A stretch of 64,000 nucleotides of DNA, taken from NCBI GenBank assembly GCA_963727445.1, contig CAVSGI010000021.1, positions 32,001-96,000 on the forward strand, in the 5' to 3' direction. The notes beneath the pieces were generated by a model. That model did not search any database, had not been told where the DNA came from, and was given only the letters and a program-made list of their open reading frames with translations. Source of the DNA: an uncultured delta proteobacterium (GTDB lineage: Bacteria > Myxococcota_A > Polyangia > Polyangiales > B10-G4). Positions 16,175-52,443 of the stretch are shown here, piece by piece. Position 1 is the stretch's first letter. Every line of letters starts with the position of its first letter. The position numbers were made by a program, and so were the translations under genes.

Positions 16175-17203
16175 ATGGGTGAGCCACCGTCAGCGGAGTC
16201 TCGGGATGCGTCCGACCCGCCCGAGCAGAAGCCGCTCCGCCGCGCGGTCCTCGACGCGCTCCTCGGGCTCGTGAAGCTCTTGGGGCTCTTCGTTCCGGAG
16301 ATCGTGGTCGCGGTCCTCGGCCTGATCGTCGGTCTGGTGATCGGCATCGTCGTCGGCGTCGGCGCGACGAGCGAGCTCTTCTCCGGACCTGGGGTGTGGG
16401 CACGCGCCGGGCCGATCGCGCTCATCTTTCCGCTGTTGACCTCGCTCGGCCCACCGCTCCTCGGCGCGCTCCTCGGCCTGGTCATCCCGCCGGCGTTGAT
16501 CCTGCCGCCTCACGCGCTCGTCGTTGGCGTCATCGCGCGCCATGCATACCGCGACCGCTACGTCGTCCTCTGGTCGGTCGCCGCGACGGTGTGGATGCCG
16601 GCGCTCTTCTTCGTCGCCTACGGCGTGCGCGGGGCGCTCGGCACCGCGCTGGTGCTCTCGCCGCTCACAGCGGGCTTCGGCTTCGTCGCGGGGGCGCTGT
16701 TCGTCGCCGTCCGCGGCGTCCTCGACGGACGATCCCTCGGGCAGTTCTGGCGGAACGCGGACGGCTCCATGGTGCTGGCGATGGTGGTGCTGACCGCCTA
16801 CGGCGTGCTCGTCACGTGGCTCGTCTGCGTCCTCTTCTGTCTCCTGCCCACCGTGCCGATCGCGCTCTCGCTGGCGATCGCACTCGCCGCGCGGCTGATC
16901 GCGAAGAAGAACCACGAGGGCCTCGCGATTACGACGCTGATCATCAACACCCTGCACCTCGCGCTGCTCGTCTTCGCGATCGTGGCGATGACTCGGGAGC
17001 GGCCCCCGGCGCGTGACCGTGCTCGGCTAGGGCTGCGGCTCGTCGGGGAAGCGGATTCCGTCGTAATCGGCTGCGCGGAACGGCAGATCCAGGCGCGGCC
17101 TCCGCGCGTGTGTCTTCGCGTAGAGCGGCGGCGGGTCGCGAAAGCGGGTGGGGAAATACGCGACGTGCATGTGGACGGCCATCGCGCGCTCTTCGAAGTG
17201 TGA
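16175..17203 (+). CDS. Multi-pass membrane protein
   Basis: About 8 hydrophobic segments; the true stop is probably near 17016 because the ORF tail overlaps the convergent M23 gene. Confidence 0.7.
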   Translation: MGEPPSAESRDASDPPEQKPLRRAVLDALLGLVKLLGLFVPEIVVAVLGLIVGLVIGIVVGVGATSELFSGPGVWARAGPIALIFPLLTSLGPPLLGALLGLVIPPALILPPHALVVGVIARHAYRDRYVVLWSVAATVWMPALFFVAYGVRGALGTALVLSPLTAGFGFVAGALFVAVRGVLDGRSLGQFWRNADGSMVLAMVVLTAYGVLVTWLVCVLFCLLPTVPIALSLAIALAARLIAKKNHEGLAITTLIINTLHLALLVFAIVAMTRERPPARDRARLGLRLVGEADSVVIGCAERQIQARPPRVCLRVERRRVAKAGGEIRDVHVDGHRALFEV

Positions 17204-17995
17204 AAGCGACGACAGGTGCGCGCGGGTGTCAGGGTGAATGCACGCGTCGATCGCCGCGCCCACGGCGCGCTCGTCCCAGTCTGCCGGTGGCACTTCCTCG
17301 GCGCGCGCATCGCGGTCGCTTCCGCCATGAGGCCTCGGATCGTTGTCCGTCATCCACAGCGAGACCACGCCGTCGTGAGCGAAGGGATCGACGTAGGCGC
17401 CGTCGAGCCAAACGTTGAAATGCACGTGGGGGATTCCGAAGGGGAAGGTCACGAAGCCGTCGATGCCGCTGTAGCCGGACAGAGCGATGGGCTGACCGCG
17501 GTGCACCACGTCCCCGACCCGGACCAGTGCCCGGGCGAGGTGGTTGTAGCTAGTGGCGAGCCCCTCGCCGTGGTCGACGAAAACCTTGAGCCCGCCTCGG
17601 TTGAACTCGCTCGAGACGCGCAAGACGCGCCCCGGGGCCGCCGCGACCACCTCGGTCCCTACCGGCGTCACCAGATCGGTGCCGTTGTGGCTGTCGTAGG
17701 TGAGGCGCTTGCCGCGAAAGTCGCGCACCCGTGTGACGCGCACGCTCCACCCCTCTTCGGGAGGAGGCTGCTCGTGGTTGAAGAGGTTCGAGATCGGGAC
17801 GCGGCGGCCGTAGAGCCGCTGTCCGGCCCAGACCCGGTAGCCCGGCAGGCGGGTGAGCTGCTCGATGGCGGTGAGGTCGAACTTCGAGGGTGGCGTCGCC
17901 GGGTCTCCCCGCAGAACGACCCGCGCTTCGGCGAGGCGCTGCCAGAGCGGGCTGAGCCCGAAGATCTCGGTGACGCGGAGACGAGGGTGGGACAC
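17027..17995 (-). CDS. M23 family metallopeptidase
   Basis: YDSHNGTDL (HxxxD), YNHL, PHVHF (HxH). Confidence 0.9.
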   Translation of the reverse strand: MSHPRLRVTEIFGLSPLWQRLAEARVVLRGDPATPPSKFDLTAIEQLTRLPGYRVWAGQRLYGRRVPISNLFNHEQPPPEEGWSVRVTRVRDFRGKRLTYDSHNGTDLVTPVGTEVVAAAPGRVLRVSSEFNRGGLKVFVDHGEGLATSYNHLARALVRVGDVVHRGQPIALSGYSGIDGFVTFPFGIPHVHFNVWLDGAYVDPFAHDGVVSLWMTDNDPRPHGGSDRDARAEEVPPADWDERAVGAAIDACIHPDTRAHLSSLSHFEERAMAVHMHVAYFPTRFRDPPPLYAKTHARRPRLDLPFRAADYDGIRFPDEPQP

Positions 17996-18007
17996 GGGAT
18001 GACCCTA

Positions 18008-19742
18008 GCGCCGGTGTCGCAGGAGCGCGAGAGCGAGGACGCCGAGCGCGGCAGCGCCCGGGCCGGTCACCGCTGCAGCGACGAGAACGACGAAGTCGCC
18101 CTGCGTTCGGCTCACCGGCCCAGGGAGAACCGACCCGCTGCCCACGAGGTGGCCCGCGCGCTCGGCAGCCTCGAATCCGCGCGCGGCTCCGAAACGAGGT
18201 CGCGTCGGCCATCTCTCGCGCAGGAGCAGCGCGTGGTGTGCATCGTCCTGGCTGGCGGGGCGGAGGCGAACGCCGCCGGGCTCGAGTCGACGCTCTCGGG
18301 CGACAGCGTGCACCGCCTCGCCGATGGCTCGCACCTGATGAGCCGCTTTCATCGCGCCCGCCGCCGAAGAAGGGCCGGGGGCGTACTTCTTTCGCCACGC
18401 ACTCGTGCGCGACGCGGCCTACCTCCTGATCCCGGACGAGGAACGCCTCCTCGCCCACGCTGCTGCCGGCTCCCACCTCGAAGGGCGGGGCTGTGACGCC
18501 GCGATCGTCGCCGACCACTTCGAACGAGGCGGATCCCTCGATGCGGCGGCGCGCGCCTATCGAACGGCAGCGGAGCAGGCATTTCTGGCCAACGACCTCG
18601 AGGGCGCCAGCGAGCACGCGAAGCGCGCACTCGACTACGAGAAGGACGACGAGACCCGCGGGGCGATCGAATTGGTGGTCGCGGAGGTCGAGAGTTGGCG
18701 TGCAGGGCCTGCCGAGGCTCGCCGGGCGGCCGAACGAGCGGTAGTGCTTCTGCGACCCGGCACTGGAAGGTGGCTCACGGCGGTGGGCCTCGTCGTCACC
18801 GCCGCGGGCCAGCAGGGCGACAACGACGAAGTCGAGCGCTGGCTCGAGCGCGTGCTCGAGATCACGCCCGACCGAGGGGCCGGCGCGGAGCTCGTGATGT
18901 GTCTCTCCCGCGCCTACTCGCAGATCATCTGGGACGAGCGTCGCGCCATCGCCGAGCGTGCGCTCGCGAGGATCGAGGACGTGGCCGCGGCTGAGCCTCT
19001 GAGCGGGCACGTCCGAGCGAGAGTCCACTTCGCGCGGGCTTACGATCATCTGAGCCGCGCCGAAATGGACAGTTGCGTCGCGGAGCTGCGAAAGCGCGCG
19101 GAGCTCCACGAAGCGACCGGGTCCGAGACCGAACGGATTCACGCGGAGCTGCTCGAGTGCCTCTTCAAAGGGTTCAGCGGTCTCGCCGAGGAAGGACTCG
19201 AGGCCATGACCGGCTGCCTCGAAGACGCGGAGCGGCTTCGATCCGATTATCTCGTGGGATGGGTGCGCTTCGAGCAAGCAGGGCTCAACGCGATCATCGG
19301 CAACGTCTCCGAGAGCCGGAGGATTCTCGTAGAGGTGCCAGAAGACATGAAAGCGTCACCGCTCTTCGCCGCCGCGGTCGTCACCTGGCTCAGCTTCTAC
19401 GCGGTCATGAGCGGGGACGTCGCGGAGGTGGAGCGTCTGCTGGCGGGCATCCGCGGCCGGCGACTCAGCCCTCGCTACCAGGTGGCGGTAGGGTCGCTCG
19501 AGGCGTGGATTGCGCTGAAGCTAGGCGAGAGAGCCGAGGCGGTGAAGCACCTCGACCGCGCGGTCGCCATCATCGAGGGGACGGATCCCGTCTTCGGAGA
19601 CACCCACCTCGCGATGTGGCCAATCGTGGCCCCCCATGCGCTCTTGGTTCGCACGCCAGGTCCCGGCCATGACCAGCATTGGGAGCCGGGCCTGGGTTCC
19701 ATCAGAAGTTGGCCAACCCCCCCGCCCGGGTTTTTTAGTTGA
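18008..19742 (+). pseudogene. Relic of a kinase/AAA-ATPase-TPR protein
   Basis: RPRENRPAAHEVARAL..EQRVVCIVLA jumps straight to YFFRHALVRDAAY plus TPR-like helices; no Walker A; frameshift near 18350-18385; C-terminus degenerates near 19640. Confidence 0.65.
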
Positions 19743-25928: not shown

Positions 25929-27062
25929 ATGCCTGAGTACGCCCTGTTCGAGGGTCTGACCGAGGAGCAGCGCCAGGTCGTCCAGTCACTCTTGTCGCGT
26001 CGCAGCGTCGAGGCGGGGGACGTGGTGATTCAGGAAGGGGATCCGGGTGATGCGCTCTACCTCGTCGAGGAGGGGGAGCTCGAGGTCTTCAAAGAAAACG
26101 AAGGCAGCGAGGAGCTTCGGCTCACGACGCTCGAGCCCGGAGACGAGTTCGGGAGCGTGGCCCTGTTGAGCGACGAGCCGCGATCTGCGTCCGTCCGGGC
26201 GCTCACCCCGACGACGCTGCTCGCGCTGACCATCGGCGATCTGCGGGAGCTGTCACGCGAGGCGATCGACAGCCCCTACGTGGTTCTGTTGAAGAACCTG
26301 CTCACGAATCAGAACGCCAACCTCCGGCGCAGCTCGGAGACGGTGGTGGCGCACTTCGAGGCGAAGCTGAAGGAGGCTCAGCGCGGACTGGCGATGGGCT
26401 CCTTCCTCGGGTTCCTCATCCTGACGATGTGCGTCTACGGATTCGCGCTGCGCGTCAGCGTGGAGGCGGTCTCCGCCGCCGGGGACAGCACGCCGATCAC
26501 GGTGGTGATCCTGCTCTTCTACGTCGCCTCGCTCCTGGTGTTCATGCGGCGGAGCGGATATTCCATGACCACCTTCGGGCTCACACTGAAGGGCTGGAAA
26601 CGCGCCACGCGCGAATCGCTGCTCTGGTCGTGTGCGTTCATCGCCGTGACCATCGCCGCCAAAGCCCTCGCGATCTCGGTGATCCCCGCATACCAGGGCG
26701 AGCCGCTCTTCTCTCTCGATGGCTTCTACAAGTTCTCGGCGACGGAGAACCTCGCCCTCGCCGCCACCTACGCCGCCTTCGCGCCCGCCCAGGAGCTCAT
26801 CGCCCGCGGCGCGCTGCAGAGCTCCTTTCAGGAATTTCTGCAGGGGAAATGGGTGACGGGCCGCGCTATCGTCTACTCGACGATGCTCTTCGCCACCACG
26901 CATCTTCACCTGTCCACGGCCTTTGCGATCGCTACCCTCGTCCCCAGCGTCTTCTGGGGGGTCCTCTACGCGCGACAGCGCACGCTCGTGGGCGTGTCGA
27001 TCTCGCACGTCCTCATCGGCCTCTTCGTCCTGTTCGTGCTCGGGGCGCCAGGCGGCGGATGA
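25929..27062 (+). CDS. Cyclic-nucleotide-binding domain fused to a CPBP (CAAX/Abi) intramembrane protease domain
   Basis: CNBD: VIQEGDPGDALYLVEEG..GDEFGSVALL..PRSASV; then about 7-8 TM segments with QELIARG, FATTH, SISH. Confidence 0.88.
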   Translation: MPEYALFEGLTEEQRQVVQSLLSRRSVEAGDVVIQEGDPGDALYLVEEGELEVFKENEGSEELRLTTLEPGDEFGSVALLSDEPRSASVRALTPTTLLALTIGDLRELSREAIDSPYVVLLKNLLTNQNANLRRSSETVVAHFEAKLKEAQRGLAMGSFLGFLILTMCVYGFALRVSVEAVSAAGDSTPITVVILLFYVASLLVFMRRSGYSMTTFGLTLKGWKRATRESLLWSCAFIAVTIAAKALAISVIPAYQGEPLFSLDGFYKFSATENLALAATYAAFAPAQELIARGALQSSFQEFLQGKWVTGRAIVYSTMLFATTHLHLSTAFAIATLVPSVFWGVLYARQRTLVGVSISHVLIGLFVLFVLGAPGGG

Positions 27063-30000
27063 AGATGATGGACATCGAAAGCTGGTTGGTAAGCCAGGGT
27101 CTCGCGCAGTATGCCGAGGCGTTCGTCGAAAACGACATCACCGTCGATCTCCTCCCAGAGCTGACCGACGCCGACCTGCGCGAGCTCGGCGTCGCCTCGC
27201 TGGGGCATCGCAAGCGGCTGCTCAAGGCGATCGCTGCCCTGAATGCCGCCGCCGCGTCCGCGGCGCCTGCCGCGCCTGCACCGACACCGACCGAAGCACG
27301 GCCCACGACTTCCCTCGATGAAGGGGAGCGACGCCATGCGACCGTCATGTTCTCCGATCTCACGGGCTACACGGCGCTCAACGAGGCCTTCGACCCCGAG
27401 GAGGTCGAGCAGATCATGGCGCGCATCAAGCGCGAGGCGAACGAGACCATCGAAAAGCACGGCGGTCGCGTCAATCAGTTCGTGGGGGACGAGGTGATGG
27501 CGCTCTTCGGCGTGCCCGTCTCGCGACGCGACGAAGCGGAGCGCGCCGTGCGGGCTGCGCTCGAGCTCCACGAGCGCGTGAACGTCATCGCCGCGGGGCT
27601 CGCAGACCGCCTCGGGCGGCGCCTCTCGATGCACACCGGCATCCAGAGCGGGCTCGTCGTCGCGCGTCGCAGCGACTCGCGCGCAGGCGACTACACGCTG
27701 ACTGGGGACGCGGTGAACACGGCCGCGCGCCTCCGTGGGCTCGCCGAGCCGGGCGAGGTCGTGGTCAGCTCGCAGGTCTGGCAGCAGGTCTCGGAGGCCT
27801 TCGACGCCGAGGCGGGCGAATCGGTCGAGGTGAAGGGCAAGGAGCACGCCCTCGTGCCGTGGCGGATCACCAGCGAGCGGACGATGCCGCGAGGCGGCAG
27901 GCGCGAGCTGGTCGGCCGGGTCGACGAGGTGCGGCAGTTCGAGGCGCTCGCGCAGACGTGCGCCGTGGAGGGCCGCGGCCGCGTCCTCTTCGTTCGGGGC
28001 GACCCGGGCATCGGCAAGTCCCGCCTCGTCGCCGAGCTGGTGCAGATCGCCCGCGAGCACGGGCTCTTGTGCCACCTCACCTCCGTGCTCGATTTCGGCG
28101 CACGCACGGGGCCAGCCGCGATCCAGGCGCTCGTCCAGAGCATCCTCGGCCTCGACGCCGATGCCGACGAAGGAAGCCGCGCCGAAGCGATCGCCGAGGT
28201 CGCGACGGAAGGAGAGGCGGGCGCCGAGATCGCGCCCTTTCTCTACAATCTGCTCTCCGTCACGCCGCCCCCCGAGGTCCAAGCGCTCCTGTCGGCGATG
28301 GACGGTCAGACGCGGGCGAAAGGGAGATGCGACGCGCTGCGCCACGTCGCCCGGCCGCGGCCGAAGAGCCCGACCCTGCTGCTCGTCGAGGACGTCAACT
28401 GGGCCGAGCCCGCCACCCTGAGGCAGCTCGCGACGCTCGCGGCGCTCGCGGCCGCCCACCCCATGCTCGTGATGATGACGACGCGCTTCGCCGGTGACCC
28501 GAGCGTGGGCGAGTGGCGGAGCAACCTGCACGGGCTGCCGGTGAGCAGCTTGAACCTCGGCCCTCTCCCACCGGACGACGCGCTGCGCCTCGCGGGAGCG
28601 AGCGCGTCGATGTCGGAGGCGATGCTGCGCACTTGCGTCGAGCGGGCCGAAGGCAACCCGCTCTTCCTCGAGCAGCTCGTCCTGAGCGCCAGCGAGGACC
28701 ACGCCTCGCACCTGCCGGGGTCGGTCCAGGCCCTCATTCAGGCCCGGATGGACCGCCTCGACGTCTCCGAGCGGGCCGCGCTCCAGGCGGCGGCGGTGTG
28801 GGGGCCCCGCGTGCCTCGTGAGGCCATCCGCTACCTCGTCGGCGATCCCTCCTGGGACGAGCGCGTGCTCGTCGAGCATTTCTTGATGCGGCTCGAGGGC
28901 GACGAGCTGGTGTTCAGCCACGCACTCATCCGTGACGGTGCGTACGGTGCGCTGCTCCTCGCGAAGAGGCGTGCGCTCCACCAGCGCGTGGCGGAGTGGG
29001 TCCAGGGGCAGAACGTAGCGCTCGCGGCGCAACACTACGAACGCGCGGGCGATTCGCGCGCGCCGGGCGCGTACCTGCGAGCAGCCGAAGCCCTGGCAGA
29101 GATGCTTCGACACGAAGAGGGCCTCGCCCAGGTCGAGCGTGGCCTCGCGCTCGCGGCTCCCGGCGCGGAGACCTTCGCGCTCCAGCGGCTGCGAGCCCGC
29201 CTGCTGCTCGAGACCGGTCGCGCTGCGGACTCGGTCGATGCCGCGCGGCGCGCCGTCGATGCCGCGACCACGAACGCGGAGCGGGCGTCCGGGCTCGTCG
29301 CCATCGCGGCAGCCCTGCGCATCCTGGATCGCCCCGAGGAGGGCCTCGACCGTCTCGCGGAGGCCCAGCCGCTCCTCGACGGTGCCAGCCCGGAGCTCTC
29401 GCGACTCTTCGGTCTGCGCGGAAACCTCAATTTCGTGCTCGGGCGCTGGGAGCAATGCGAAGACGCGCACGAGAACGCGCTCCGGACGGCGCGCGAGGCG
29501 GGCTCAATCGAGGCGGAGATCTTGGCTCTCAGCGGAGTCGGCGACGCGGCCTTCGGTCGGGGACGAATACGCACGGCACACGAGCACTTCATACAATGCA
29601 AGGAGCGCGCGGGCGAGCACGCGCTCTACCGAATCGAGACGACCTCCGAGGTGATGTCCGGCTGGACCTGGTTCTTCCAGATGAACATTCATCAGAGCCT
29701 GGAGTCCACGGCCGCCGGAATCGAACGCGCCCGGAAGCTGAGGCTCGCTCGGACGGAGCTGCTTGCGCACATGCAGCGCGCGCTCCTCCACGGTTGGGTT
29801 CGCGGCGATGTCGCTGCGGGGCGCGAGGAGCTCGCCCTAGCGCTCGAGAATCGCGAGCGCACTCGGGTCCCGCCGATTCCACGCCATGAACCACGTCTAC
29901 AGCGGGTTGCTGTGTATCAGGGAGGGCGACGCCGAAGAGGCGCGAGCCCTCGCCCAACAGGCCCTCGCGATGAGCGATGACGTGCTGTCGTTCATCGGGA

Positions 30001-30410
30001 TGCAGATCTACGGTCTCCTCGCGTGCGCCGGCGAGACCGTCGAGAGCCGGCGCGAGGCGCTCTCCAGCGGTGAGACGCTCTCCGCGAGGGGCGTCACCGG
30101 CATAGGCCAGCTGTTGTTTTACGACACGGCGATCGAGTCGTGCCTGATCGACGAGCGCTGGGAAGACGCGGACCACCAGGTCGCGAGCCTCGAGGCCTTC
30201 ATGGCATCCGAGCCCTTCGCGTGGGGCGAGTTCATCGCGGAGCGGGGGCGAGCGATATCGCGGGTAGGTCGCGGCGAAAACGATGGGGAGTTGGCAGCGA
30301 CGCTCCGAGCGCTCGAGGACCGAGCGAGGGAGGCGGACGACCTCATGCACGTGCCGGCGATCGAGGACGCGCTCGCGCAGATCGGCGGGGGTGAGTTCGC
30401 GCCACCATGA
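27059..30410 (+). CDS. SAM - class III adenylate/guanylate cyclase - AAA/STAND-like ATPase - TPR protein (one frameshift)
   Basis: SAM (WL..QGLAQY..LGHRKRLL), cyclase FSDLTGYT/QFVGD/GDAVNTAARL, Walker A GDPGIGKS, Walker B LLLVED, GNPLF, FSHALIRDGAY, TPR-like helices; removing one A at 29849-29850 joins ORF 29886-30410 (about 1116 aa). Confidence 0.9.
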
Positions 30411-30627
30411 CGATCACGGGCGGCTGTGGACGACGAGCCGAGGATCCGCCTCAAAGGGACCTTCGATCAGAAGGAGCGGAGCCAGCTCTCGGGCGGAAGT
30501 CGCCAACCGTTGCTGGGCCGCCTCCTCTTCAGCGCTCGCGGCGCACTTGGGGGAGGACATAAGCACAGTTAAGGCGCGACCCGTAGCGTTCGCCCGATGC
30601 CACACGCAGGGTTTGTTCATGATTTCC

Positions 30628-32353
30628 ATGCGTCTCGTCGCGAACGGTTCCGCCGCGCTCCTCTTGCTTTCATCGGGCCTCGCCGTCACTGGATGCGGCG
30701 ACCCGGCGGTAGCCGACAACGACGGAGGCGCATCCACTTCAGATGACGCGAGCGGGTGGGACGGCGCGAGCGAGGACGGTGCGCTCCCTTCGGACGGCGC
30801 CGTCGCCTCGGACGGTGGGCCGCCCGGGGATTCGTCCGTCGACGGAGGCATCGCGATGCCTGGCTACGAATCCGGTGGGCACGCCCACGACCCGCTCGGG
30901 CGGTCGAGGCGGGCCACCAATCGTGTTCTGGCCCAAGCCCGTATACGCGCATCCCGAGGTCCCATTCGAGTTCACGATGGTCGCGTACGACGAGGAGCAC
31001 GATCGACTGCGCTACTCCCTCCGTGAAGCGCCCGACGGGATGACGATCGACGCAAACGGTACCCTCCGCTGGACCCCGGACACCTCGGCCGGCGCCCACG
31101 AGTTCACCGTGGAGGTGGACGACGGTCGCGGCAATCCGGTAGCGGTGCCCGTCACGCTCACGGTGGACGCTTCGCGCTTCCTGTTCGTCGCGCCCGACGG
31201 GAGCGACGACGCAGACGGCACCATTGGGTCTCCTTTGCGTGACGTCGAGGCCGCAATGCGGGGTGTCGTCGCCCGCGGCCCGGGCAGCACGCTCTACGTT
31301 CGCGGCGGCACCTACGACATCCACTGGCAGTGGGAGCAGTCCGGTGTGGCGTCTCCATTTCGCGGGGCCACGGGAAGCCCCGACGCGCCCTTCGTCGTGC
31401 GCGGCTACCCAGGCGAAACGCCGGTTCTCGATTGCGGAGGCGATGGACATGGTCTCTGGAGCTACGGCGGAAGCTACATCTTGATGGCAGATATGGAGGT
31501 GCAGAGCGCGAGCGGACGCGGGGGTGCCCTCATCGATGGCGATCACAACGTCATGCAGAACATCACGGTGCGCGACTCCAACTGGCCGGCCGCGGCCAAC
31601 TGCACGGGCTTCTTGGTGAGGGGGGCCGAAGCGGTCTGCCACCGCTGCCGCGGATACGACAACTACGATCGCACGAGCACGCACTGGAACAGCTCGAACT
31701 TCCTGGTGTACGCCGACGGGAGCACGGAGCGGGACATGTACATTCTCGACAGCTACTCGGAGAACAGCATCGTCGGGTTCAAGATCAAGCACGCCGGCGT
31801 GGGGCGCCTCGTGCTGCATGGCTCACGCGAAGCGGACAGTAGCGACGGTTGGGGGGGCATAGACGATGGATCGACGATCCGTTTCAACACGTTCGAGCGA
31901 AACAGCACCGGCATCGCAGTCGGTATCAGCGATCCCAACGAGTCCACCGCGGGCGACATCCTCGTCGAATACAACACGGTGGTGGATGCGAACTACGCCT
32001 TCCACCTTCAGGATGGCTACGCAGCGAGCACCGGCGTCACGTTTCAGCACAACGTCCTCTCCGTCGCCGGCGAGCCGGGCGCGGGGGAGGGCGATCCGCA
32101 CTTCACGTGGGTGTGGCCGTGGCGCGACGCGCCGCCCGACGACCTCGTGAGCGGTGGACAGAGCTGCTACTTGGGGACCCGTAGCGATCAGGGCTTTCGA
32201 TTCGGTCGCACATCCATGGGGTTTTCGGATTGGCAGAGCGGGTCCCGCGATGCCGACTCGCTCTTCAGCGATCCCACCTTTTCCATGGACGGCTATGCGC
32301 TGGAAGCCGGATCCACCTGCGCGTCATTCGGGCGCGTGGGGGCCTGGGAGTGA
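30628..32353 (+). CDS. Lipoprotein with Ig/cadherin-like domain and right-handed beta-helix (pectate-lyase-like), frameshifted
   Basis: AVTGC lipobox; shift near 30860-30915; YSLREAPDGMTIDANGTLRWTP; FVAPDGSDDADGT..LYVRGGTY. Confidence 0.75.
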
Positions 32354-33064: not shown

Positions 33065-33397
33065 TCCCGCGTGTTCCAGCGGCTGGGCGCTACTGGATCG
33101 GATGCAGCATCCCTGTCCACGCTGCCCGAACCGCGGTGGATCGCGTCGCCCCGACCGTGTGTTGCGGCCATCCGCGAGGCGAGCTCTTCGCGACTCTGGC
33201 CCGTGCGCATCCAACGATCAGCCACACACCACCCTGGCGCCGGGCCCCGACGAGGCGCACACGAAACGCCCTCGAGCGCACTGAGCCAGGGAACGACCAT
33301 GGGAGTGAGATGGCCGCGGCGCGCGGCCGAGTCCAGCTCAGGGGAGTTTAGGGACCGCGCGTGGCCAACACTCGGTGCCCTCCTTAGGCTCGACTTC

Positions 33398-34615
33398 ATG
33401 AGGTGTACGTGTCTTTTCGCTGCCACGATCGCTCTGTCGTTCGGCCCGTCGGGAGCGGCCGCCGAGGTGCTTGTGGACGAGACCTTCGACGACGCCGCCC
33501 TCTCCGACCGGGGCTGGTACGACGTCACCGCGGTCGACATCGCGACTGAGGGTTGCGCCGCCGGGAGCTGCCTCCGCTACCACTATGCGCCCGGCGACGT
33601 GACGCCGAGTGGCCGCGGCACGCTGCGCATCCAGTTCGCGCCGACCGAGGTCGTCTATCTCCGCTACATGACCCGCTACAGCGACGATTGGGCGTTTCGC
33701 GAGCGGTACGGGCCGCACGAGCTCTACTTCACGACGAACGAGGATGATCGCTGGGTTGGGCCTGCGGAGACGCATCTGACGGTGTACGTGGAGCACGTCG
33801 AGGGCGTCGGGCGAATCAGCGCTCAGGACACTCGAAACGTCGACCAGTCGCGGATCGGTGAGGACCTGACGGCTGCGACGGAGGCACGTGGCGTCCACGG
33901 TTGTAACGGCGACCCCGATGGCTACGGCGCGGGAGACTGCTACCGGGCCGGTGACCTCTACCGAAACGGACGCGGGCTCGGACGGACGACGGACGCGGTC
34001 TTCACCTCGGCGAGCGGTCCCCGTTTTCAAGGCGATTGGCACGAGGTGGTCGTCGAAATTCGTCTGAACACGGTCGGCGACGGAGTGACCCACGCCGACG
34101 GAGTCGCTCGCTACCTCTTCGATGGAGAGCTTCAGTTCGAGGTGGAAGACCTCGTGTTTCGGACGAGCGAGAACCGCGACATGGCCTTCGAGCAGTTTCT
34201 CATCGGCCCCTACTTTCACGATGGTGCACCGCACGCACAGGATTGGTTCGTCGACGAGCTCACCATCGCGAGCACGCCCGAGGAGGTCGGCCTCGACGCC
34301 ACGTCGCCCACACCGGCAGACCCGCCGTCCACGGCGACGAGCGACGGTGGGGCTCCGATCGCAGATGAACCCGATGCATCCGGAGAGTCCCCGAGCGGGG
34401 CTGCCGATGCAGCGATGGGCGCGGCGCCCGAAGGTGGCGCCGGACCAGAGAGCGAAGTGACCGGGGGCTGCTCGGTGTCCCCGAGTGGATCCGCGCCGCC
34501 GTGGGGAGCTCTGGCCTTCATCCTGCTCATCGCGCTGACATTTCTCCGGTCGTCCGTCGCGGCGAAGGTGACGGTGCCAGTCGACCACGCGGACGAAGTC
34601 CGCCCGACACGGTGA
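33398..34615 (+). CDS. Secreted jelly-roll (polysaccharide-lyase/LamG-like) protein with MYXO-CTERM
   Basis: Signal peptide; VYLRYMTRYS..WHEVVVEIRLNT..DGVARYLFDG..WFVDELTI; C-terminal GGCSVS plus hydrophobic helix. Confidence 0.75.
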   Translation: MRCTCLFAATIALSFGPSGAAAEVLVDETFDDAALSDRGWYDVTAVDIATEGCAAGSCLRYHYAPGDVTPSGRGTLRIQFAPTEVVYLRYMTRYSDDWAFRERYGPHELYFTTNEDDRWVGPAETHLTVYVEHVEGVGRISAQDTRNVDQSRIGEDLTAATEARGVHGCNGDPDGYGAGDCYRAGDLYRNGRGLGRTTDAVFTSASGPRFQGDWHEVVVEIRLNTVGDGVTHADGVARYLFDGELQFEVEDLVFRTSENRDMAFEQFLIGPYFHDGAPHAQDWFVDELTIASTPEEVGLDATSPTPADPPSTATSDGGAPIADEPDASGESPSGAADAAMGAAPEGGAGPESEVTGGCSVSPSGSAPPWGALAFILLIALTFLRSSVAAKVTVPVDHADEVRPTR

Positions 34616-50844: not shown

Positions 50845-52443
50845 TTGAAATCCGTTCTGCGCGAATGCTCTGCAATCGCGATCCTCATCGCATCCGTCTC
50901 GCTCACCGGTTGTGGCGATGACGAGATGATGTCGGACGCCGCTCCAGATGGCGGCGGCGATGCAACCCCGGATGGCAGCCCGGACGGGATGACCGATGCC
51001 GCGCCGATGGCACCGACGATCACGCGAATCGAGATCATCGAGAACCCCAACAACGGGCTCAGCGCCACGATCGAGGTCGAAACGGACATCCCGACGACCG
51101 CCGTCGCCAGCATCAACTCGCCGACCATGCGCGATCTGCCGTTCACGTCGCCGCTCGGCACGTCCCACCAGATCCCGGTGCTCGGCATGCGCGCGGAGCA
51201 GGAGTACGGGTTCCTGGTCACGGTCGAGAGCGAAGACATGCTGACGGCCGAGGACGACACCCTCACCTATTCGTCGCCAGCGCTACCGGACGACTTCCCG
51301 CCCCTCACGACCACCGTCGGCGATTCGACGATGGTCTCTCCCGGTGTGACCGTGTTCAACGTCTTTCGATGGACCCCGACCGTGGACCCCGCATACGGAT
51401 ACCTCATCGGCATCGACGAGGAGGGAGAGGTCGTCTGGTACTACCGGACGGATCACCGCATCGAAGACATGCGCCGCCTTTCCAACGGCAACCTGGTCTA
51501 CGTTCGCCCGGAGGACGCGTACCTCGAGATCGACATGATGGGCAACGTCGTGAACACGGTGCTCGCCGAGGACGTTCCCACCGACAGCTTCCATCACGAG
51601 CTCTACGAGCTCAGCGGTGGGGGCTTCGTGGTCTTGAGCACGGAGCTCATGACGATTGGCGGATACGAAGACGGCACCGTCAGCTACGACGTGGTCGGAG
51701 ACGTCGTCGTCGAGCTCGACGCGTCGGGAGCCTTCGTCAACAGCGCGAGCTTGTTCGACGTGCTCGACCCGCACCGCATGCGCCTCGGCTTCGACTCTCC
51801 CTTCTGGAACCAGCGCTACGAGTCCGTCAGCTCCGGCACCAAGGACTGGACCCACTCCAACGCGGTGATCTACGACGAACGCGACGACACCTTCATCGTC
51901 TCGGTTCGGCATCAGGACTGGCTCGTCAAGCTCCGGCGCGATACCGGCGAGATGGTGTGGAAATTCGGCTACGAGGGTGACTTCTCGATCGTCGGCACGG
52001 GTGACTACATGTTCCACATGCACGGGCCCGAGCTCGAGGCCGACGGAAACCTGCTGATGTACGACAACGGAAACGGCCGGGAGGGCCTGAGCGCGGGCGA
52101 GTTCTTCACGCGCGTGGTCGAGTTCGAGCTCGACGAGACGTCGATGACCGCGATGCAGGTCTGGGAGTATCGGGGCACCTCCGACTACTCGTCCCCGTTC
52201 GTGGGAGACGCCGACCGACTCGAGAACGGCAACGTGTTGATCACCGACGGTGGCCTCGTCGCCGATCCTGCGGCGCCGGTCGGCGCGCCCGACAATCAGA
52301 AGTCGGCGCGGGTCGTCGAGGTCACGCACGAGGAGATGCCCCAGGTGGTGTGGTCGGCGGAGGTTCACGATGACGCGACCACCGACCCCGTCGGATACAC
52401 GATTTACCGTTCGGAGCGCCTCGGCAGTCTTTATGCGGAATGA
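50845..52443 (+). CDS. Arylsulfate sulfotransferase (ASST) family lipoprotein
   Basis: SLTGC lipobox; FHHE, DWTHSN, SVRHQD, HMHG, YDNG, GDADRLENGN; TTG start tentative. Confidence 0.9.
   Translation: MKSVLRECSAIAILIASVSLTGCGDDEMMSDAAPDGGGDATPDGSPDGMTDAAPMAPTITRIEIIENPNNGLSATIEVETDIPTTAVASINSPTMRDLPFTSPLGTSHQIPVLGMRAEQEYGFLVTVESEDMLTAEDDTLTYSSPALPDDFPPLTTTVGDSTMVSPGVTVFNVFRWTPTVDPAYGYLIGIDEEGEVVWYYRTDHRIEDMRRLSNGNLVYVRPEDAYLEIDMMGNVVNTVLAEDVPTDSFHHELYELSGGGFVVLSTELMTIGGYEDGTVSYDVVGDVVVELDASGAFVNSASLFDVLDPHRMRLGFDSPFWNQRYESVSSGTKDWTHSNAVIYDERDDTFIVSVRHQDWLVKLRRDTGEMVWKFGYEGDFSIVGTGDYMFHMHGPELEADGNLLMYDNGNGREGLSAGEFFTRVVEFELDETSMTAMQVWEYRGTSDYSSPFVGDADRLENGNVLITDGGLVADPAAPVGAPDNQKSARVVEVTHEEMPQVVWSAEVHDDATTDPVGYTIYRSERLGSLYAE

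Follow-up and report, generated by a model that had tools for sequence, protein, structure and literature searches.

To our knowledge, the function of most bacterial membrane proteins of the CPBP superfamily has not been established, and those that have been studied as regulators are controlled by their abundance and not by a ligand. In the accessible part of one source, Rce1 is reported to activate water through E140 and H173 and to form an oxyanion hole with H227 and N231 (PMC5874806), and the available text of another gives EExxxR, FxxxH and HxxxB as the CPBP motifs, with a catalytic first Glu (PMC13692083). Further reports describe regulators: SpdC interacts with several kinases, WalK among them (PMC5854430), LnsB, the motifs of which are dispensable, partners an acyltransferase (PMC7387801, PMC13559823), and CflP, which has Val at the catalytic Glu, tunes CovS (PMC13692083). 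The present study concerns a stretch of 64,000 nucleotides from an uncultured delta proteobacterium (contig CAVSGI010000021.1 of assembly GCA_963727445.1; hereafter the window), and in particular two overlapping genes in it, of which the first encodes a fusion (P0001) of a cyclic nucleotide-binding domain (CNBD) to a CPBP membrane domain, and the second a class III cyclase (P0002) that contains a STAND-type ATPase. Our best reading, a tentative one that falls a little short of even confidence, is that P0001 is a non-proteolytic membrane regulator switched by cyclic AMP (cAMP) and fed locally by the neighbouring STAND cyclase; the family to which it belongs would repeatedly have moved next to a cyclase. 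The worthwhile finding is this effector family, rather than the idea of a two-gene defence system put forward in the initial annotation of the locus, which is weak.

The CNBD of P0001 scored 81.2 bits against PF00027, at a cut-off of 27.5, which fits a CRP-type CNBD. An AlphaFold2 model of the protein, with a mean predicted local distance difference test score (pLDDT) of 89.8, consists of a CRP-like domain, a long helix and a helical bundle, and its N-terminal part matches the Thermus CAP structure 4ev0 (Z 20.0, root mean square deviation (rmsd) 1.7, 135 aligned residues). In the model the helix of residues 116-181 is the C-helix of the CNBD, which continues unbroken into the first membrane helix, and via this long helix the membrane protein would be expected to form a homodimer. 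The membrane domain scored 41.9 bits against PF02517 (cut-off 22.4), in agreement with CPBP/Rce1-like membership at the level of the fold, and the bundle modelled alone reached a pLDDT of 94.2. Its top structural match was SpdC (6u0o; Z 17.0, rmsd 3.7, 211 aligned residues), followed by Rce1 (4cad; Z 16.2, rmsd 2.8, 200 aligned residues), after which Z dropped to 8.1 for the next entry. A Foldseek search with the membrane domain yielded no match at E 0.001, though Rce1 and SpdC filled its top five rows; a PDB sequence search with the C-terminal 127 residues also gave no match, and the ESM Atlas matches were generic Rce1-like clusters only.

Within this fold the active site is altered. Instead of EExxxR, FxxxH and HxxxN, P0001 contains QExxxR (Q288, E289, R293), FxxxH (H325) and HxxxG (H360, G364), so that, among the motifs expected of a glutamic protease, FxxxH is present, EExxxR is absent, and HxxxN/D is absent as well, with H360 kept and Gly at the Asn position. 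Among the 150 best profile hits Q288, E289, R293, Q297, H325, G344 and H360 are invariant (150/150), and G364 (149/150), K245 and Y281 (147/150 each) and F321 (145/150) nearly so. Gln at the column of the catalytic Glu was also found in 51/51 homologues of the first search and in all 29 hits of a pattern-free genome search, two of which are the window gene itself. The register of the motifs is secure, because EE stands at these columns in 10 of the 11 further CPBPs that this genome encodes; since several of these EE-type proteins also deviate at the oxyanion Asn position, the change there weighs less than that of the first Glu. APH-1, for which we assume a QE-type motif, was not among the listed structural matches, which does not exclude it. 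Given the replacement of the catalytic Glu by Gln and of the oxyanion Asn by Gly, the membrane domain is probably not a glutamic protease, and the altered site, as judged from the alignments, is under strong selection. The term membrane protease, used for P0001 in the initial annotation, is therefore not sustained, both residues being replaced throughout the family; likewise, of the two labels that databases give to such proteins, 'CRP-like' and 'CAAX protease', the second seems mistaken. No NCBIfam model scored above its cut-off for P0001 (MrtX 33.4 vs 180, Mrt_core 24.4 vs 100).

The family defined by this membrane domain is large, as a profile of the domain found 900 clusters (50% identity) at E 1e-30 and 1,619 at E 1e-10. 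A CNBD is present in 123 of the 150 best hits, while many of the other 27 are incomplete and a few seemingly stand alone. Other inputs on the same QE-type domain include REC (P0258), FHA (P0317, L094) and two CNBDs (P0014). Interchangeable input domains on one domain are typical of signalling outputs, and with its CNBD, REC and FHA inputs swapped in this way the membrane domain appears to behave as expected of a regulated signalling output domain. In P0054 a QE-type CPBP is fused to a domain without assignment. The distribution of the family is patchy (24/401 genomes of the phylum and 35/401 of the order), and all 24 carriers in the phylum also encode a cyclase. No relative was found in the viral contigs searched, and just 2 of 72,556 plasmid records contained one. 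A full-text literature search, with subscription journals outside its scope, retrieved no paper on a CNBD-CPBP fusion and none that joins CPBP or CAAX with a cyclic-nucleotide term. The large CNBD-CPBP family is apparently undescribed; the superfamily survey of Pei et al. 2011 may list the architecture, and novelty is not proven. The family provides a candidate cAMP effector for the cyclase-rich Myxococcota, Cytophagales and Betaproteobacteria, its built-in cyclic nucleoside monophosphate (cNMP), receiver or FHA switch offers a direct experimental handle on CPBP function, and Variovorax species and Azospirillum lipoferum 4B are cultured carriers.

Proteins built like P0002 are common, and P0002 does not stand out among them (706 hits at E 1e-100 among 8000 candidates, the best at 61% identity); it has Pfam matches to SAM (E 1.4e-16), Guanylate_cyc (E 1.3e-21) and AAA_16 (E 4.1e-16), and a weak TPR_12 match below the cut-off. 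D100 and D144, which we take to be the metal-binding Asp residues of class III cyclases, are conserved in 118/119 homologues (one has a gap), and N220 and R224, presumably the transition-state Asn and Arg, in 119/119. Walker A and Walker B are conserved too, and P0002 is probably an active cyclase, the likely product of which is cAMP; most family-linked cyclases keep the Lys of adenylyl cyclases. In the mechanism proposed here, the ATPase-TPR part would switch the cyclase on, and cAMP would be made locally for the neighbouring membrane protein. Binding of cAMP to the CNBD would shift the C-helix and thereby the first membrane helix, and the shifted bundle might bind or release a partner membrane protein or a lipid in the conserved cavity, like the non-catalytic CPBPs SpdC, LnsB, CflP and Abx1. 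In most genomes the effector would read cAMP from cyclases encoded elsewhere.

The linkage of family members to cyclases was assessed in 183 loci (80 from genomes, 80 from metagenomes and 23 from the phylum); the 160 genome and metagenome loci were the best 80 of 178 and the best 80 of 183, chosen by the QE pattern, and include duplicate and clonal records. Neighbouring genes were called with a simple gene caller of our own and cut to 500 residues, and some genes were missed. A cyclase lies within 7 kb in 25/183 loci and is the direct neighbour in 10 (7 on the same strand), which come from two lineages besides the window. Clustering at 58% identity resulted in 59 clusters, of which 6 contain a cyclase-linked member. 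The 17 clusters with flanks below 4 kb were dropped, and 4 of the remaining 42 representatives are linked, compared with a background of 2.1% derived from 213 cyclases in 23 genomes (p 0.011); in the window's genome the background is 1.6%. On a tree of 102 rows, from which L085 and L087 were omitted because they duplicate L064 and L077 (themselves the same records as two order-mates), the linkage state changes at least seven times. The linkage between family and cyclase is thus real but loose, as it is significant yet confined to a minority of loci and absent in phylum-mates. Of the cyclase-CNBD coupling proposed in the initial annotation, this leaves the conserved catalytic and Walker residues, the CRP-like fold of the CNBD and a linkage above background in several lineages, but not a fixed pair.

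Besides that of the window, five cyclase architectures are linked to family genes: REC- or PAS-cyclases in Cytophagales and Binatia, tandem cyclase-ATPases (L011, L018, L022, L156), a kinase-ATPase-GAF-cyclase together with a metallo-beta-lactamase-fold gene (L016), an FHA-cyclase (L182) and a lone cyclase (L006). The tandem cyclase-ATPase loci form a neighbouring clade, in which this different cyclase-ATPase gene (30% identical) follows immediately downstream, in the same orientation. The genomes G443 (L016) and G447 (L033) have no PF00211 match besides the linked gene, and G444 has one other. Other CNBD genes occur nearby in 3/42 representatives, compared with a background of 2.7%, which is not significant (p 0.10).

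Some of these loci have additional features. The tandem protein of L011 (8150-12991) and L018 (8156-12985) is a cyclase-ATPase-cyclase-ATPase protein of 1,610 residues, in which cyclase 1 keeps Asn/Arg and cyclase 2 keeps Lys and both Asp residues without Asn/Arg; this complementary distribution suggests an intramolecular heterodimer of the two cyclases. The Cytophagales loci (L007, L010, L015, L020 and others) share a conserved hybrid histidine kinase, a REC/PAS-adenylyl cyclase, a PD40-OmpA protein, the CNBD-CPBP gene, and a protein of 500-545 residues that has no Pfam or NCBIfam match. On contig C1 of G446, two identical-scoring REC-cyclase copies (268022 and 278753, about 10.7 kb apart) flank the family gene, which may reflect a tandem duplication or an assembly repeat.

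Several observations weigh against the favoured reading of a locally fed cAMP-switched regulator. No cyclase is present in the flank of 158/183 loci, many of which have short flanks; none of the 23 phylum-mates has one within about 7 kb, though all have cyclases, nor does any of 27 order loci within 1.5 kb (4 of these are the same genomes as in the phylum set), and no cyclase accompanies the nearest relatives for which flanks are available (L001, L128-L134; 38-53% identity). The lineages do not share any one conserved partner gene, and the p value of the linkage becomes 0.086 at a background of 4%, which the cyclase-rich carriers G440 and G441 approach. In the phosphate-binding cassette, for which we assume G-E...R-S/T-A as the CRP-type consensus, P0001 keeps Gly75 and Arg85-Ser-Ala and has Ser76 where 104/126 relatives have Glu; in P0001 and its close clade this Glu is replaced by Ser, Ala, Gly or Leu. 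At the base-selecting positions, for which the available part of one source gives K497/D566 as the adenine-selecting pair (10.64898/2026.08.12.744502), P0002 contains Gln140 (118/119 homologues, all that cover the column) and Thr215 (119/119), and with Gln for the base-selecting Lys and Ser for the cassette Glu the nucleotide is not assured to be cAMP. Finally, an altered site that is strictly invariant is as compatible with an enzyme as with a scaffold, the motifs of LnsB and SpdC being degenerate instead.

The loss of the cassette Glu in the window's clade would also fit a purely incidental adjacency, in which two independently mobile signalling genes met in one narrow lineage without functional coupling. 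The same applies to the reverse test, in which none of eight close cyclase homologues (38-61% identity) has a CNBD-CPBP partner within 1.5 kb, to the origin of the named close cyclase homologues, which come from Betaproteobacteria, and to the same-genus genome G401 (86% complete), which gave no match to the DNA of either gene or to the membrane domain. Nevertheless, such a chance encounter is unlikely, in view of the ATGA coupling of both genes, the conservation of their junction in relatives at about 95% identity, the different cyclase-ATPase directly downstream in the neighbouring clade and the low random background in this genome. An obligate form of the two-gene system proposed in the initial annotation was rejected on the basis of 10/183 directly adjacent loci, 0/8 in the reverse test, 0/23 phylum-mates and 0/27 order loci, and the rarity of adjacent homologues, which the initial annotation itself had named as a refutation, largely holds against the pair as a fixed module. 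The association of P0001 with this particular cyclase is local to a single lineage, and the conserved unit is the effector family.

With the same wiring, the QE-type bundle could also be an enzyme of changed chemistry, for instance one that hydrolyses acyl lipids or transfers acyl groups. Its gate would be cNMP, phosphorylation (REC) or phosphopeptide (FHA), and it might hold a metal by E289, H325, H327 and H360. This possibility, which we judge somewhat unlikely, draws on the seven site residues invariant in distant hits and on the near-invariant K245 and Y281, as well as on acyl-lipid neighbours that recur in unrelated lineages (PlsC, fatty-acid desaturase, CNBD-patatin, acyl-CoA ligase, enoyl-CoA hydratase, thioesterase, PfaD and DevBCA exporters), including a KS-AT-FabA-PlsC synthase in Azospirillum lipoferum 4B. 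According to the accessible text on Rce1, a lipid-binding gap is located between transmembrane helices TM2 and TM4, but E141 faces away from the cavity (PMC5874806). Moreover, lipid genes make up 12/167 near genes vs 7/136 far genes (Fisher p 0.63) and 9/84 immediate neighbours vs the same far set (p 0.18), and they occur in 10 vs 5 of 42 lineages (p 0.25), for a list of lipid-gene families that was chosen after the data had been seen; by Pfam, the window neighbours lack an acyl-lipid enzyme, bar one MAPEG and one HlyIII protein. An enrichment of lipid genes near the family was rejected, as the near/far comparison is not significant, and the acyl-lipid neighbourhood is a lead, not a result.

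In a wider and quite unlikely version of this idea, QE-type CPBPs would constitute an unrecognised signalling-output class, that is, an enzyme within the membrane or a gate for lipids, built on the Rce1 fold around an invariant Q-E-R-Q/H/H/K/Y site, allosterically switched by cNMP, REC or FHA in about 900 clusters and acting on membrane acyl lipids, and the window pair would be a self-contained cyclase-effector module, maybe using a non-standard nucleotide. If true, the QE-type CPBP would be the first in its superfamily to be gated by a second messenger.

Among the loci with lipid-related genes, DevBCA-type exporters are located at L001:10533-11861, L002:3513-4856, L011:13063-14385 and L134:3349-4470. 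The DevBCA-type ATPase is fused to GAF (L001, L002, L011, L018, L130) or to a CNBD (L134), near CNBD-patatin, cyclases and PfaD/NMO genes, and a cNMP-controlled lipid export module is a possible interpretation of these loci. At L034 and 16 other loci, mostly from Variovorax and Rubrivivax, the family gene follows an MFS transporter gene to which it is translationally coupled, and a PlsC-type acyltransferase lies in divergent orientation. The Azospirillum lipoferum 4B synthase (L218:7666-14445, plasmid AZO_p1) is a KS-AT-4xFabA-PlsC protein of 2,260 residues, convergent with the family member.

It is very improbable that the pair is a Pycsar-like anti-phage system, in which recognition of a phage protein through the STAND-TPR part would prompt the cyclase to produce a cNMP, leading the membrane protein to kill or arrest the host. 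The writer-reader layout and the patchy spread would suit this explanation, and the cyclase and CNBD match the PycC and PycTIR profiles at the domain level (E 5.5e-21 and 7.3e-7), but the PycC scores are no different from that of the general Pfam cyclase model, the PycTIR profiles matched only at the level of the CNBD, and the PycTM profile gave no match. PADLOC, applied at E 1e-20, had hits in 0/11 window neighbours and 6 hits among the 135 family neighbours scanned (out of 167 near genes), all to generic ABC, kinase, methyltransferase or deaminase domains, and no integrase or defence families were present among the window proteins scanned. In addition, the effector mostly has no cyclase nearby, the guanine-cytosine content of the gene pair matches that of the window, and viral relatives were absent and plasmid relatives rare in the searches described above. 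On the basis of the PADLOC and Pfam scans of neighbours and the empty viral search, a defence island was rejected; the defence role and defence-island association envisaged in the initial annotation find neither phage copies nor defence neighbours to build on.

The layout of the locus (Table 1) corresponds to the initial annotation in several respects. Pfam scans confirmed a CNBD-CPBP/Abi fusion upstream of a SAM-class III cyclase-AAA-TPR gene, and the ATGA at 27059-27062 is indeed the stop/start overlap of the two genes, with 132 nucleotides between the fusion gene and the upstream AHSA1 gene and about 215 (approximately 210-217) from the pair to the next start. The cyclase may start 6 nucleotides (two codons) later than the ATGA, because its homologues align from Met3 of P0002. 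Contigs of X1 (26680-28461) and X2 (26192-27390) bridge the junction of both genes at about 95% identity, and the adjacency is therefore not an assembly chimera. The genome (9.47 Mb, 85.6% complete) contains one copy of the fusion and eight class III cyclase matches. In the tree, the order-mates of this genome have Polyangiaceae as their named neighbours, so that it probably belongs to a wetland myxobacterium of the Polyangiales. A sigma-70 promoter scan of the pair found 0 sites and a terminator scan none between or after the genes, this type of scan being uninformative for this organism.

Table 1. Positions of the gene pair and its parts in the window
Feature	Position	Strand	Details
CNBD-CPBP fusion gene	25929..27062	+	377 residues (P0001); Pfam scan; single-copy in the genome
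cNMP_binding domain	25998..26255	+	residues 24-109, E 5.5e-23
Unbroken 66-residue helix, predicted	26274..26471	+	residues 116-181; secondary structure of AlphaFold2 model
CPBP/Rce1-fold membrane domain	26382..27059	+	seven long helices in model; Rce1-like Pfam match at residues 277-363, E 1.2e-10
SAM - class III cyclase - STAND-type ATPase - TPR gene, as assembled	27059..29980	+	P0002, 973 residues; final ~40 residues out of frame
Additional base compared with contigs from close relatives	29849	+	frameshift site
C-terminal TPR part of the cyclase gene	29850..30410	+	second frame

The frameshift that had been suspected in the cyclase gene was located near 29849 by homologue alignment and by the X1 and X2 contigs. 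The second frame, at 29850-30410, aligns with residues 930-1114 of intact homologues (1114-1116 residues) at 40-42% identity, and one contig each of the wetland runs X1 and X2 has one base fewer at 29849 (2/4 runs; the other two have no usable cover there). The extra base likely reflects either an error of assembly or a lesion found in this strain alone. The next gene (30619-32353), which encodes a signal-peptide-like start followed by Ig and beta-helix domains, is apparently split over two frames near 30850-30920, a probable second indel within 1 kb, and an ATPase/TPR-like region without Pfam matches at 16175-19742 may be another frameshifted large gene. Elsewhere in the window, a secreted protein (33071-34615) ends in GGCSVS and a hydrophobic tail, which resembles a MYXO-CTERM motif; a CPBP with an LE motif near 51527 of G000:C15 may be the myxosortase.

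Compared with the described systems, P0001 shares its fold with the non-catalytic CPBP/Abi regulators SpdC, LnsB, Abx1, CflP and SpbR, of which CflP also lacks the catalytic Glu; the available portions of these reports describe no cytoplasmic sensor domain, in contrast to the fused CNBD, REC or FHA of the window family (PMC5854430, PMC7387801, PMC13559823, PMC13692083). The altered site is invariant over about 900 clusters in this family, whereas that of the non-catalytic regulators is degenerate. With Rce1 and the myxosortase MrtX, P0001 has the fold, the second Glu, the Arg and both His residues in register (PMC5874806, PMC11980579), but Gln is found at the equivalent of E140 of Rce1 and Gly at that of N231. 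Pycsar and Pucsar, as presented in the accessible part of their description (10.64898/2026.08.12.744502), resemble the window in having a class III cyclase beside a CNBD effector with a membrane part; however, the window effector is neither a TIR protein nor the 3TM PycTM, its cyclase is a SAM-STAND-TPR protein of 1,100 residues, and the pair is without obligate pairing or defence context. From the SAM/zinc-ribbon - class III cyclase - AAA - TPR proteins, annotated as 'class 3 adenylate cyclase/TPR repeat protein', P0002 differs only in its adjoining CNBD-CPBP gene. Finally, CNBD-patatin (NTE-like) and CNBD-MscS proteins, CNBD-fused effectors of the kind found beside family members in L002, L006 and L174, have the same sensor-helix-output design, in which the output of the window protein is a CPBP bundle.

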